DNA from: a phage
Direction: 5' to 3' (one strand)
Length of the DNA stretch: 34,803 nt
NCBI GenBank assembly: GCA_021149145.1
Contig: GCA_021149145.1_4322.1
Shown here: positions 11,125 to 34,207 of the stretch, piece after piece
Numbering within the stretch: position 1 is the first letter of the stretch
How the letters are laid out: each line of letters opens with the position of its first letter
Notes under the pieces: generated by a model
Told to the model about the DNA's origin: nothing
What the model saw: only the letters and a program-made list of their open reading frames with translations
Databases searched by the model: none
Program-made: the position numbers and the translations under genes

Positions 11125-11200
11125 TTTCTAACCTCTCGCTGTTTGATATATAAATTATATGGCATACATGCCTTTGGTGTTTAGCTATTCGTGCTGTTTA
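11125..11200 (-). promoter_or_regulatory. promoter-leader cassette copy
   Basis: Minus strand reads AACAGCACGAATAGCTAAACAC, 17 nt, TATAAT, then TTATATATCAAACAGCGAGAGG and the ATG. Confidence 0.6.
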
Positions 11201-11321
11201 TTTTATCTTCACGCTCCTTCCATAGATTCATCAGCTCGAAGTACATCATGGCAACCTCGCCAGTCTTAGCCTCATCCATCATCCGTTTAGCCCACTGGCT
11301 TGGTGTTTCGTAGTTATCCAT
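11181..11321 (-). CDS. 46-aa hypothetical protein (below the ORF-track cutoff)
   Basis: Translation is MDNYETPSQWAKRMMDEAKTGEVAMMYFELMNLWKEREDKINSTNS. The start shows TAATG coupling. The last 6 codons and the stop are the palindromic box. Confidence 0.45.
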   Translation of the reverse strand: MDNYETPSQWAKRMMDEAKTGEVAMMYFELMNLWKEREDKINSTNS

Positions 11322-11482
11322 TAGTAAACAAGAGCCTCGTGGTTTGCTATGTAAATCTCCTCATCGTGCTTGTTTTTAATGAAGTACCCATTGCCATCTT
11401 CGCTAGGCTCTGCATAGAATACGTCGCCATGCTTTAAGCGCGCCATATAATCATCCTCACCAATATATACGATCTTAATCAT
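11321..11482 (-). CDS. 53-aa hypothetical protein (below the ORF-track cutoff)
   Basis: Translation is MIKIVYIGEDDYMARLKHGDVFYAEPSEDGNGYFIKNKHDEEIYIANHEALVY. GTGAGGTGA lies upstream of the ATG. Confidence 0.45.
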   Translation of the reverse strand: MIKIVYIGEDDYMARLKHGDVFYAEPSEDGNGYFIKNKHDEEIYIANHEALVY

Positions 11483-11500
11483 GCAATCACCTCACTTAAA

Positions 11501-11635
11501 TTATAGTTCGTTAGAATCGCTTTTAGCGTCATCTACGGCTGCTGAAATCATGTAAATAATTATGAAGCCCAATAACCAGAGTAACCATGGCAATGCTTCA
11601 ACCAGAACTTCATCCATCATTAACCCAGTATTCAT
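11501..11635 (-). CDS. 44-aa membrane mini-protein
   Basis: GAGGA lies 7 nt before the ATG at 11635. The protein MNTGLMMDEVLVEALPWLLWLLGFIIIYMISAAV... has one hydrophobic helix. The track start at 11689 would overlap the HNH gene. Confidence 0.45.
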   Translation of the reverse strand: MNTGLMMDEVLVEALPWLLWLLGFIIIYMISAAVDDAKSDSNEL

Positions 11636-11645
11636 TTCTCTATCC

Positions 11646-12068
11646 TCAGATTTTGTTAATTTGCTCAAACTTCTCAAACCAGAAAACAACTGGAGCCTCC
11701 ACTATGGAGATGAGGCCGAACCGCTCTGCCGTGCGAAAATTCATGCTGCTCTTACGCCCGCGAGCTACTTGAAGAGACACCTGTTCCCTGAACATTTCAA
11801 GGGAATAGCAATTTTTCATGAGGTTGCATGGAGCACATGCAGGGTAAAGGTTTTCCATTCGATCAGCTTGTGGTCGATTAAACTCACCTGTCGCCTTCAG
11901 CTTGAAAGTTCCTTTCTCCGCTGCCTTCATGCATACCTCAGATTTACGTAGCACCGGTTCAACATGGTCAGCATGCCAGCCTTTCTCAGGTAGTTCACAC
12001 CCACAATAAGCGCAGCGACCACCGAACTTGCCCTTCAACTCTTCCCTTTGAGATTTGCTTAATTTCAT
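11646..12068 (-). CDS. HNH endonuclease
   Basis: Contains CAYCGCEL...WHADHVEPV...NLYPACAPCNLMKN, i.e. two Cys pairs plus the H-N-H core. Confidence 0.8.
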   Translation of the reverse strand: MKLSKSQREELKGKFGGRCAYCGCELPEKGWHADHVEPVLRKSEVCMKAAEKGTFKLKATGEFNRPQADRMENLYPACAPCNLMKNCYSLEMFREQVSLQVARGRKSSMNFRTAERFGLISIVEAPVVFWFEKFEQINKI

Positions 12069-12078
12069 TTTATAAACC

Positions 12079-12258
12079 TTAAATTTTATTCAATTGATCA
12101 AGAATCTCGAAAGCCAGTTCTCGAGCTTGCTCTTCATTTAAGTGGATAGTATGAACCTTAGGTTCATCATGCAAACCGAAAGCCTGGGCGATGATAAATG
12201 TTGTGTAACCATCGAAGTTGTTAGCCTGGAGCTTAGGGTTACTTTGCTGGAATTTCAT
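12079..12258 (-). CDS. 59-aa hypothetical protein (below the ORF-track cutoff)
   Basis: Translation is MKFQQSNPKLQANNFDGYTTFIIAQAFGLHDEPKVHTIHLNEEQARELAFEILDQLNKI. The ATG overlaps the upstream stop (ATGA). Confidence 0.45.
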   Translation of the reverse strand: MKFQQSNPKLQANNFDGYTTFIIAQAFGLHDEPKVHTIHLNEEQARELAFEILDQLNKI

Positions 12259-31744: not shown

Positions 31745-32710
31745 TAGAAGTTCTTGATACTGCTTACTTACCCACTCAGGAATCATCAAATCTTGCTCTG
31801 TAATTCCATTACTGTATCCAGGCCACTCATCAAGTTCCTTGCACTGCTTGTAAACAGCCAGAGCCTCTAAATATTGTAAGCGCCCAATGCGAAGCTGCTC
31901 ATCTGTAAGTGTGTAGCACATAGGTAAGTAGGGCTCTGTTTTCTCCTGAGCCAGAAGTCGAACCACAACCTTACGCTTTTCGTTGAATGCTTTAACAAAC
32001 AAATCGCGCTGAAGTGCCATCTTACACAGGTAACCATGGTCATAAGCTGACTTACCAAATCCTCTAGGGCTTGCGTCTGCTGTTGTTTTATAGTCAGTAA
32101 TGTAAACCACTCCATTAACAACATCCACGTGGTCAAGCCGAACCTTAACGCCGCAGCCGAGAATCTCACCAAAGATTGACAGCTCTTTCTGTGCTATTGG
32201 TGAATTAATTACCGCATCGTAAGCCGGAATATTGGTCAGAACTTCTCGCATTGCGATTACCTTGTCGTAATCTTTAGCACTAACCAGCTCCTTGCCACTA
32301 ATTAACGCCTCAGCGCTCTCCTGCTGCTCAATTAACCATTTAACCGGCCAATCCTCGCCAGACTTATACATCATCTCCACAAGCTCGTTATAACCCTTCC
32401 CTGACGTGCCGGAAACGCCAACTTTTTTAAGCGCTGCCGATAAAGCTGTTTTGCTAGTAATCAATCCTTCCACTTCGTCAAAGTCAGTAGCTCGCATGTA
32501 AGTGGAATCGAACACTTCACGTTCTAGCATCATCGTATGTCCCAAAGTGCCAAACTTTAGTGCTGCACTTGAGTTGCTGCGCTGCTTAAATTTCCATTTT
32601 GCTGGAGAAGTAGCAAGAATCTCAGCCAGCGAAGAGCCAGAGATATGGTCTTTCTCTTCGTGATAGGATTCATTTGTTAGCTCGTCGTTCGTATAAACTT
32701 TAAATGTCAT
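31739..32710 (-). CDS. RecE-like PD-(D/E)xK exonuclease
   Basis: Contains LDHVDVVNGVVYITDYKT (D...D-x-K core). It is paired with Erf and SSB downstream. Confidence 0.6.
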   Translation of the reverse strand: MTFKVYTNDELTNESYHEEKDHISGSSLAEILATSPAKWKFKQRSNSSAALKFGTLGHTMMLEREVFDSTYMRATDFDEVEGLITSKTALSAALKKVGVSGTSGKGYNELVEMMYKSGEDWPVKWLIEQQESAEALISGKELVSAKDYDKVIAMREVLTNIPAYDAVINSPIAQKELSIFGEILGCGVKVRLDHVDVVNGVVYITDYKTTADASPRGFGKSAYDHGYLCKMALQRDLFVKAFNEKRKVVVRLLAQEKTEPYLPMCYTLTDEQLRIGRLQYLEALAVYKQCKELDEWPGYSNGITEQDLMIPEWVSKQYQELLK

Positions 32711-32713
32711 GGC

Positions 32714-32908
32714 TCAATCCTTAATTTTAACAATCTTAACAGCTTTCAAATCTTCCTCAGTGAAATATCCGGTCAGAATAGATTTTGCCTCTTTCTTGCT
32801 ATCGAATCGGTCCGCTTCAGATTTGTGAACTGTATATCCAGCGGGGCCACCAAAGTAGCAATCGCCGAACAGTGCGTTGTTTTTCTCTTTAATAATGAAG
32901 TATGGCAT
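32714..32908 (-). CDS. hypothetical protein, first gene of the recombination operon
   Basis: 64-aa ORF with AGAGAGATAGAG upstream. Confidence 0.5.
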   Translation of the reverse strand: MPYFIIKEKNNALFGDCYFGGPAGYTVHKSEADRFDSKKEAKSILTGYFTEEDLKAVKIVKIKD

Positions 32909-32980
32909 TTCTCTATCTCTCTATTGTTGCGTGCTTTCGATTAGTTAATGATGCCGTACGCACAACGCATAGTCCAATTG

Positions 32981-33327
32981 GTATCACCTATTAATTAATC
33001 AAGTATACGCGTATAATTTTGTAACTACGTGTAGACATTGGCATGAGTTACGTTTTTAGCCACTTAAGCCAAGCTATAGCTCAATGTAAATAGTGAGTAT
33101 ACCGTGTATACCGATTTTAGCGGAGGGTGCATAGGTATAGGTGCTGCGCAATACTGTATAAAATCACATGGTATAAAAATTATAAGCGGAACACTCAAGA
33201 ACAGTAGTTACATGATATACAAGATATACATATATAATAATAATAATAAGAGTAAAAGGTTGATATATATAGATATTATAATGTAACTATGGCGTAAACT
33301 GGCGTAACTGGGCGTATACGATTTCCA
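32981..33327. repeat. AT-rich switch-region module, copy B
   Basis: Collinear with 13211-13530. It has the palindrome TATACGCGTATA (33004-33015), AGCTATAGCT (33072-33081), (AAT)4 at 33236-33247 and a 29-bp identical core at 33251-33279. GGCGTA iterons sit at 33291, 33301 and 33311. Confidence 0.8.
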
Positions 33328-33373
33328 GCGGATGCATATGGTATACATGGAGTTACATTGGTTACGCGTAAAC

Positions 33374-33449
33374 AATAGCACGAATAGCTAAAACTAATAC
33401 GCAAAACCCTGTATAGTTGGTCACACAAAAAACGAGAGAGGATTTCAAA
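33374..33449 (+). promoter_or_regulatory. promoter-leader cassette copy
   Basis: Reads AATAGCACGAATAGCTAAAACT, 16 nt, TATAGT, then TGGTCACACAAAAAACGAGAGAGG and the ATG. Confidence 0.6.
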
Positions 33450-34139
33450 ATGGTTATTTGGTCTTTATTTGATGGTTCAGGGCTGGCTGTGAAAGATTGG
33501 GCTGAGGCTTGTCACGAGTGCTACTGTTTCAACTTTGATGAGTCTGACCACGGTAGTTACGGGGATTTAAATGCAAAATTTGAACATGAGAACATCACCT
33601 ACGTTAATGCCTGGATAGATGGCAACTTCGACTTTGATGTGAAGCCTGATATCATTTTAGCGTTCCCGCCGTGTACGGATTTAGCCGTGAGCGGGTCAAG
33701 GCACTTTGAGCGAAAGCGACTGGTTAACCATAACTTCCAGATTGAAGCTGCGGAAACATGTAAAGTTGCTTTTAACTTGGCTAATAAGTACGAAGTCCCA
33801 TACATGATTGAGAATCCAATCAGCGTACTGTCATCACTCTGGAGAAAGCCTAATAAGACTTTCCACCCATATGAATACGGAGGCTATTTGCCGGAAGATG
33901 ATTTACACCCGTTTTTTAGCGACCTAATAAAGCCAAAAGACGCATATCCCAAGAAGACATGCATTTGGTATGGCAATGGGTTTAAATGGCCAGAGGCGAT
34001 TCCTGTGGACGTTAACGATGGATTCTCTGACCAATACAAGAAGCTTGGTGGGAAGAGTAAGAAGACAAAGGTAATTCGCAGTCTAACTCCTCGCGGTTTT
34101 GCAAAAGCAGTCTTCATAGCAAATAGCACGAATAGATAA
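33450..34139 (+). CDS. compact C5-cytosine DNA methyltransferase-like protein
   Basis: The ATG at 33450 follows the leader. Motif I is LFDGSGL, motif IV is FPPCTDLAVSG, motif VI is MIENP, and a motif-IX-like RSLTPRGFAKAVF is present. At only 229 aa, no obvious target-recognition domain is visible. Confidence 0.55.
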   Translation: MVIWSLFDGSGLAVKDWAEACHECYCFNFDESDHGSYGDLNAKFEHENITYVNAWIDGNFDFDVKPDIILAFPPCTDLAVSGSRHFERKRLVNHNFQIEAAETCKVAFNLANKYEVPYMIENPISVLSSLWRKPNKTFHPYEYGGYLPEDDLHPFFSDLIKPKDAYPKKTCIWYGNGFKWPEAIPVDVNDGFSDQYKKLGGKSKKTKVIRSLTPRGFAKAVFIANSTNR

Positions 34140-34207
34140 AGACAAATCCCAAGGATGAGATATCATTACTCCATTGAAACGAAACACACCTTCTAAGGAA
34201 TACGAAA
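34122..34207 (+). promoter_or_regulatory. promoter-leader cassette copy
   Basis: Reads AATAGCACGAATAGATAAAGACA, 16 nt (containing CCCAAGGATGAG), TATCAT, then TACTCCATTGAAACGAAACACACC and the ATG. The box encodes the MTase C-terminus NSTNR. Confidence 0.6.

Follow-up and report, generated by a model that had tools for sequence, protein, structure and literature searches.

We describe a 34,803-nt stretch of phage DNA (GenBank assembly GCA_021149145.1, contig GCA_021149145.1_4322.1; the whole stretch is called the window below) that makes up most of the genome of a T1-like coliphage (Drexlerviridae, Braunvirinae) and carries 16 copies of a 21-nt repeat, the box, of the form ATAGCAC-N3-TTGCTAAAGAC. 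Upstream genes run into the box and take their stop codons, and some of them a short C-terminal tail, from it; orthologous genes end in it in different frames; and some of the gene insertions and deletions that separate related phages are bounded by it. A repeated cassette of ~75 nt has the box as its upstream part and, judged by its layout, would resemble a combined promoter and terminator. Probably this cassette fills the gap between transcription units as promoter and terminator, compaction together with the box's stop codons closes the upstream genes, and accessory genes travel with cassettes.

T1-like phages often contaminate laboratory and industrial cultures and are candidates for phage therapy. 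Escherichia phage AN_ECEAS (Drexlerviridae, Braunvirinae) shares 93.7% nucleotide identity over 87% of a 20-kb query from the window, and phages TR1, phiA2-1, IME542, Msk, and Rtp are 75 to 86% identical to it. The comparison set comprised eight complete relatives and 32 further loci, cited where needed by labels such as L001 (L006 is phage Msk). Stop positions were counted over 335 distinct box contexts drawn from 36 related loci, and protein identities were checked against Pfam and PHROGs.

The box and its cassette

The sequence AATAGCACNAAT, with at most one mismatch, occurs 9 times in the window, compared to 1.0 expected (none of 100 shuffles got to 9), and AAATAGCAC occurs 6 times, compared to 0.44 expected. 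A scan with a position weight matrix (PWM) returned 13 strong boxes and 3 weak ones (12522, 19882, and 26505), matching the count of 16 in the first-pass annotation of this DNA; shuffled controls gave ~0.7 matches. Eight related genomes have 17 to 22 copies each. The box is the T1-like 21-nt direct repeat aaATAGCACnnnTTGnTAAAA known from phage TLS, in which 18 intergenic copies lie ~76 nt 5' of start codons, and it is present in T1 and Rtp too (Kropinski, Misra et al. 2024, PMC11447400). The TLS paper leaves the function of the repeat open, naming a stoperator, an enhancer site, or an UP element (PMC11447400). In our literature search, no paper besides the TLS paper mentioned ATAGCAC, and none tied the repeat to recombination.

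The PWM copies are oriented with local transcription, as reported for TLS; two of them, the intragenic site at 24616 and the copy at 28023, have no downstream gene. Within the box, TAGCA-N5-TGCTA is an inverted repeat and hints at a dimeric DNA-binding protein as the binder. One candidate for this role is the conserved helix-turn-helix regulator encoded at 26055-26528 (phrog_2856; weak P22 Cro-like match).

The order within the cassette is box, usually a hairpin, a -10 hexamer, a conserved leader (CATCGAAACGAnAGAGAG) with a ribosome-binding site, and the ATG. The -10-like (TATAAT-like) hexamer lies 16 to 18 nt past the end of the box in 15 of the 16 copies, so that the last six bases of the box occupy the -35 position and the box spans approximately -50 to -30. 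Among the 11 copies with a correctly assigned downstream start, the ATG lies 72 to 96 nt (mostly 72 to 85) from the start of the box. A hairpin between the box and the -10 hexamer, or over the latter, is clear in 11 of the 16 cassettes (mean z, -2.24; p=0.003), and several of these hairpins score as terminator-like. With this geometry, the cassette would be expected to act as a promoter.

Stop codons and C-terminal tails supplied by the box

The first-pass annotation had placed the stop codons of eight genes inside boxes, in two registers, and when the three frames were read into each box all eight were found there. Three genes end at a TAG at box positions 2-4 (register 2): that of TerL (7370..8989, minus; Pfam Terminase_6C) at TAG 7370-7372 in the box ATAGCACGTTTTGCTAAAGAC (7353..7373, minus), that of VRR-NUC (22403..22822, minus) at TAG 22403-22405 in the box at 22386..22406 (minus), and that of a PDDEXK (RecE-like) exonuclease (31739..32710, minus) at TAG 31739-31741 in the box at 31722..31742 (minus). 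Five more have NSTN endings (register 1). Four of these stop at a TAA at box positions 15-17, namely a 46-aa ORF (11181..11321, minus; ..KINSTNS; TAA 11181-11183 in the box at 11177..11197, minus), a 54-aa ORF (14431..14595, plus; ..RRNSTNC; TAA 14593-14595 in the box at 14579..14599, plus), a dNMP kinase gene (18809..19363, minus; ..INSTNC; TAA 18809-18811 in the box at 18805..18825, minus), and a methyltransferase gene (33417..34139, plus; ..ANSTNR; TAA 34137-34139 in the box at 34123..34143, plus). For the fifth, a 56-aa ORF (15202..15372, plus; ..LLNSTN; box at 15359..15379, plus), the frame and the ending had been given correctly, but the stop codon is a TGA (15370-15372) at box positions 12-14.

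Beyond these eight, three more boxes lie flush with an upstream ORF. The weak box GTAGCACTTTTTTGTTAATAA (19882..19902, minus) is abutted by the TAA of the exonuclease gene 19903..21036, which arrives in the third frame. At the 5' edge of the box at 13766..13786 (plus), which heads the rightward early block, a doubtful 80-aa ORF ends with TAA-TAG, and the regulator gene 26055..26528 reads through the degenerate box at 26505..26525 (plus), stopping at +22 (..EAARKAKG-stop) ahead of a terminator-like hairpin. For each of the 11 boxes with a co-oriented ORF upstream, that ORF ends between -2 and +22, and these 11 ORFs split 5:4:2 over the three frames; the other five boxes have no such ORF.

ORFs arriving in two of the frames end in the box because it holds TAG (positions 2-4) in one and TAA (positions 15-17) in the other. 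The third frame is open in the box (ATA GCA C..), and genes that arrive in it bring their own TAA against the A-rich 5' flank. The possibility that the box is a stop trap in all frames was rejected, as the third frame reads through 60 to 170 nt unless a TAA abuts the box. The existence of two registers is a trivial consequence of the sequence of the box and reflects no special joining rule.

The registers, described at first as fixed, are not so: a third solution, the abutting TAA, exists, and orthologues shift from one to another. Across the family, the upstream gene stops between -5 and +15 in 83% of the 335 contexts, with 118 stops at +2, 47 at +15, 45 at -2, 33 at -1, 19 at +8, and 11 at -5. 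More than one frame is used by 16 of the 38 upstream gene families that have at least two contexts, and frame use over families (48, 20, and 19) favors the TAG frame, which adds no residues (chi-square p=9e-5). Orthologues of the exonuclease gene (19903..21036) stop at -5, -2, -1, +2, +8, or +15, and members of the VRR-NUC family stop at +2 in 22 contexts, at +15 in 5, and at +11 in 1. The 54-aa ORF family ends with ..ARNSTNC in some phages, with ..AAKK-TAG in others (register 2 in L018-L022), and with ..KAKKK-stop where no box follows (L010, L012, L014, and L017 have none); the methyltransferase family likewise varies in register among orthologues. Stop positions wholly explained by the sequence of the box, and orthologous junctions that drift in place, as those of the exonuclease gene do from -5 to +15, are also what one would see under pure compaction, in which the box is only a promoter element that happens to hold stop codons, genes abut it because deletions strip away spare DNA, and breakpoints at boxes result from random illegitimate joining followed by selection for whole transcription units (the Hendrix model). 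We rate that explanation, in its pure form, as rather unlikely; the evidence that bears against it comes from gene content and is given below.

An ending shared by five unrelated proteins of the window, and by an unrelated N6-methyltransferase of phage Msk, could be taken for a functional C-terminal peptide, e.g., a degradation or targeting tag. However, homologues without a downstream box lack the tail, a comparison that the first-pass annotation had called for. Such homologues end with ..EREKK-stop in the 46-aa ORF family and with ..KAKKK-stop or ..NINGEHK-stop in the 54-aa ORF family; among 120 methyltransferase homologues in the database, 3, the closest relatives, end with ANSTNC, the native end being ..PRGFAxAV[FY]xAN plus variable residues. 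Moreover, the same family in other phages uses the TAG and adds no tail, the tail changes with the subtype of the box (NSTNC, NSTFC, and NSIFS), and the PHROG profiles match residues 1-40 of 46, 1-50 of 54, and 1-35 of 56 in the small ORFs, ending ahead of the tails. A functional peptide is thus exceedingly improbable, and this reading was rejected as contradicted by the tail-less homologues.

The NSTN[C/S/R] tails are encoded by the box and the K-TAG ends come from it; both are harmless by-products. For TerL, K-TAG or K-TAA is native: relatives without a box read AAATAG followed by CCGTGATAAACT, or AAATAA, at the same codon. An annotation rule follows for these phages, in which gene ends should be expected inside the box and short C-terminal tails taken as box read-through.

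The remaining boxes of the window differ in their surroundings. The weak box at 12522..12542 (minus) has a good -10 hexamer and leader and no upstream gene abutting it, the box at 26022..26042 (minus) lies in a divergent region 5' of the helicase gene, and the box at 33375..33395 (plus) lies 5' of the methyltransferase module described below. A good copy at 28023..28043 (minus), between the primase and tail-fiber genes, points against both, lacks a co-oriented gene downstream, and could represent an antisense promoter or a relic. Finally, a box-like site at 24616..24636 (minus) lies inside a LAGLIDADG ORF.

This last site is part of a 1.14-kb insert (24375-25512). The insert interrupts the helicase gene, which most relatives have as one gene of 1995 nt. 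Besides the box-like site, the insert carries the LAGLIDADG endonuclease ORF (24466..25320, minus), and it is not an intein, because the reading frame is discontinuous across it. An Rfam scan of the whole window matched only a tRNA, with no match for the cassette or for the helicase insert; the tRNA-Arg gene (anticodon CCT; 10118-10193, minus) lies among small early genes, as in other T1-like phages.

Box-bounded modules and breakpoints

Two modules of the window run from box to box where relatives have a single box. The methyltransferase module (33393..34122, plus) is absent from L001, L003, L005, and L008, and a module with a frameshifted polynucleotide kinase (PNK) gene and the dNMP kinase gene (18826..19891, minus) is absent from L005, L007, L008, L011, and L023; in L012, an HNH gene fills the PNK-dNMP kinase slot. 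In L003 and L005, the one box at the methyltransferase slot looks like one of the module's two boxes (A) in its 5' part and like the other (B) in its 3' part, on two informative positions only. Phage Msk has an unrelated DPPY N6-adenine methyltransferase, ending with ..RINSTNC, between the same two boxes (16777-17552), where the window has one of C5 type; no homologue of the Msk enzyme was found at other positions among the loci compared. The PNK, dNMP kinase, and methyltransferase families occupy differing box-flanked positions in different phages (at the protein level only), and at the dNMP kinase slot the box subtypes do not fit a simple one-step insertion. Pure compaction does not readily account for relatives that keep a single, apparently chimeric box in place of a module, nor for two unrelated methyltransferases in one slot, each fused in frame to the box.

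The PNK gene itself has, at 19640-19720 (minus), an 11-nt deletion relative to AN_ECEAS (CCCAATGATAA, between GATAA repeats), which results in a frameshift and two ORFs (19669..19827 and 19365..19688). Either the gene is a pseudogene or the deletion is a sequencing error.

HNH genes, too, are found with cassettes. In the late tail operon of relatives, they bring their own box, hairpin, -10 hexamer, and leader (L004, 10598-11141; L005, 32888-33431; L008, 21393-21939). These cassettes are joined exactly at the stop codon of a tail gene, with ..GFN-TAA of TMP running directly into TAGCAC and ..NQS-TAG of minor tail protein L into CAC; where the site is empty, that codon is TAA. That three separate late-gene sites are each joined to a cassette precisely at the stop codon again argues against pure compaction. 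In relatives, the 56-aa ORF is missing or has an HNH gene in its place. L001, L003, and L005 carry an HNH gene between the RecE-like exonuclease gene and box 31722, and of the 14 HNH-sized insertions among the eight genomes ~10 end in a box on one side. The last two points, along with the HNH cassettes of the late operons, would fit an exchange driven by homing endonucleases, in which free-standing HNH (and LAGLIDADG) genes beside boxes cut genomes that lack them and repair co-converts the flanks, turning the surroundings of cassettes into recombination hot spots, the box itself not being the substrate. This we consider improbable, in that the window has no HNH gene beside the eight boxes concerned and endonuclease genes are missing from the methyltransferase and PNK-dNMP kinase modules.

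The first-pass annotation had put forward, as one of two readings, that the box is a recombination joint, and the enrichment of breakpoints that this would entail among relatives is present. Per kb, unique boundaries of indels and replacements number 32 in boxes, 20.5 elsewhere in the cassette, 16.6 at other gene ends, 5.4 in the remaining intergenic DNA, and 2.7 within genes. Clusters of alignment ends lie within 5 nt of a box in 18 of 191 cases, boxes making up 1.4% of the sequence. Gene adjacency is broken in a mean of 0.75 of relatives at box junctions, compared to 0.43 at other junctions (p=0.002), and the pairwise-distance matrices of flanking genes have a rho of 0.11 across boxes (n=4), compared to 0.44 elsewhere (n=13; p=0.016). 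Some of the sharpest jumps in identity to the closest relative fall at cassettes (19945, 22343-22355, and 31749) and many change-points fall inside genes, in an output that is noisy. A breakpoint density in boxes twice that of other gene ends, and the decoupled histories of the genes that flank them, are further points against pure compaction.

Several results weigh against taking the cassette as a promoter and as a site of exchange. The hexamer at the -35 position, AAAGAC or TAAACA, fits sigma-70 poorly. In 7000-26999, a generic scan for sigma-70 promoters returned 43 sites, compared to 46 expected from shuffles, i.e., no enrichment; the few cassettes that the scan caught were found through TAAACA in the -35 position, and by itself the scan has little value as evidence. 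Boundaries are enriched in boxes no more than about two-fold relative to other gene ends (Poisson p=0.009), and relative to other junctions with a gap of at least 50 nt the excess of broken adjacency is marginal (0.75, compared to 0.52; p=0.046). Among the 115 clean indel entries of the eight genomes, 83 have no box, 28 have a box at one end, and 4 have boxes at both ends, so that ~70% lie away from boxes, and many of the non-box indels are bounded by other short homologies at gene starts that are equally good as edges. Non-allelic cassettes are a weak substrate for homologous recombination, since their longest identical run is 20 nt (median, 8), with a median ungapped identity of 42% over 90 nt. 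Replacement of an upstream gene must break at the edge of the box because no spacer separates the two, and conserved boxes attract alignment ends. All nucleotide matches of at least 150 nt to the eight genomes were collinear, with none off the diagonal, so no recently moved module was found among them. Furthermore, a module 3' of TerL (6943..7369, minus), which consists of box, leader, and the gene of a 117-aa virion protein (6947..7300) and is absent from seven relatives, is bounded not by two boxes but by a 6-7-nt microhomology, being joined at AAATAGC / AAAAGC. The numbers behind these tests are small (four box junctions in the distance-history test), and related genomes are not independent samples.

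Pure compaction draws support from several of these points: the majority of indels away from boxes, the marginal enrichment over spaced junctions, the exact shared runs of at most 20 nt, the microhomology at TerL, and the pull of conserved boxes on alignment ends. The proposal of a recombination joint stands in one part: boxes coincide with gene-content breakpoints above other positions. The other part is left in doubt by the clean indels elsewhere, which are the majority, and by the confounding effect of zero spacing between gene and box.

Exchange between such units would have candidate agents at hand. The recombination genes of the phage (31018..32710, minus) encode an ERF single-strand annealing protein (31018..31710; Pfam ERF, 1.4e-27) and the PDDEXK exonuclease (31739..32710; DUF3799, 1.5e-21). 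In the mechanism that we propose, upstream genes would run up to the box, the genome keeping no spare DNA, and translation would stop in or at the box whichever frame arrives, at the TAG, at the TAA, or at a TAA abutting the A-rich 5' flank. Accessory genes (methyltransferases, the PNK-dNMP kinase pair, and HNH endonuclease genes) would each travel with a cassette, and units would be gained, lost, or swapped at short conserved patches, i.e., the box and the leader, with the ERF annealing protein and the PDDEXK exonuclease as plausible agents. The junction between gene and box would travel with the gene, because the boundaries of exchange would lie in the box or leader.

We infer that exchange occurs by short-homology recombination, possibly via Erf and the PDDEXK exonuclease, rather than by random joining and subsequent selection, although sequence comparison alone cannot separate recombination at the box from survival of only those recombinants that carry whole cassettes. 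A more far-reaching form of this idea makes the ATAGCAC cassette a docking and exchange site throughout the Drexlerviridae, the equivalent in siphoviruses of the T4 PeSLs discussed below, at which units of box, leader, and accessory or homing-endonuclease gene are inserted and excised at the box through short-homology annealing by Erf and the PDDEXK exonuclease, the built-in stops protecting the upstream gene in any frame. We advance it tentatively, with its chances short of even; if true, it would answer the question of function that the TLS paper leaves open. For engineering, the cassette edges would be natural insertion points.

Two kinds of breakpoint in the window have other settings. Small genes that relatives lack, at 21736-21903 and 11526-12079, have non-box overlaps of 5 to 27 nt at their edges, e.g., TGAATAATGAAAATCGTA and TGAACTGATGAAAATTGTA at successive gene starts, which points to short-homology exchange at stop/start overlaps in general. 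In the tail-fiber gene (28065..30518), the C-terminal two-thirds (28364-30514) is replaced in most relatives, with a sharp intragenic breakpoint at ~28364; this is the usual host-range domain swap and is unrelated to boxes.

Relation to known cassettes and module boundaries

Hendrix and colleagues reportedly described morons as independent units of promoter, gene, and terminator inserted between conserved genes. The methyltransferase and PNK-dNMP kinase modules are similar, lying between neighbors that are adjacent in relatives and each having its own promoter-like cassette. Morons differ in belonging to temperate lambdoid phages and prophages and in having assorted host-type promoters, whereas here all units share one phage-wide cassette and each unit is joined in frame to the one that follows.

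Boundary or linker sequences at the module junctions of lambdoid phages are said to go back to Susskind and Botstein in 1978 and to Clark et al. in 2001. Like the box, they are short conserved sequences between otherwise unrelated modules and have been proposed as sites of homologous exchange. Unlike the box, they are locus specific, not one repeat dispersed ~20 times per genome; nor are they promoter cassettes, and no supply of stop codons has been reported for them.

The box itself has already been published as the TLS repeat, with which it shares its sequence, its orientation with transcription, the distance of ~76 nt to start codons, a number of 18 to 21 copies per genome, and subtypes A, T, and G of the central triplet. 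The TLS paper calls the repeats intergenic; the supply of upstream stops, the fixed distance of 17 nt to the -10 hexamer with the hairpin, and the bounding of gene content are not reported there.

The closest analogue is the PeSL (promoter-early stem-loop), a mobile regulatory cassette of T4-like phages (Arbiol et al. 2010, PMC2839356; Comeau et al. 2014, PMC4122927). In a PeSL, the upstream stop codon comes first, then the promoter with a stem-loop between -35 and -10 or over -10, and then the Shine-Dalgarno sequence and start codon; of the 14 gene-content differences between phages phi1 and RB49, 10 are associated with cassettes (PMC2839356; PMC4122927). PeSLs occur in T4-like myoviruses and the present cassette in siphoviruses of the Drexlerviridae, and the two have no sequence relationship. 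A PeSL has an AT-rich region and a consensus -35, compared to a 21-nt box with TAGCA-N5-TGCTA here, and ~100 bp is conserved between PeSL copies, compared to exact runs of at most 20 nt. Between phi1 and RB49 most differences in gene content fall at PeSLs, whereas here it is a minority (a box lies at one end or both in 32 of 115 indel entries). For PeSLs, excised mini-circles and measured promoter and terminator activity are on record, whereas the present cassette is known from its sequence. The likeness lies in the layout, which runs in both from upstream stop codon through stem-loop to Shine-Dalgarno sequence and start codon, and in ORFs that differ between relatives by standing between two cassettes where the relative has one, as at 18826-19891 and 33393-34122. 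The fixed distance to the -10 hexamer, the closing of the upstream frame by the repeat, and its frequent place at the edges of accessory modules together give a concrete, testable model, in which promoter/terminator cassettes would double as module boundaries, as in T4-like phages.

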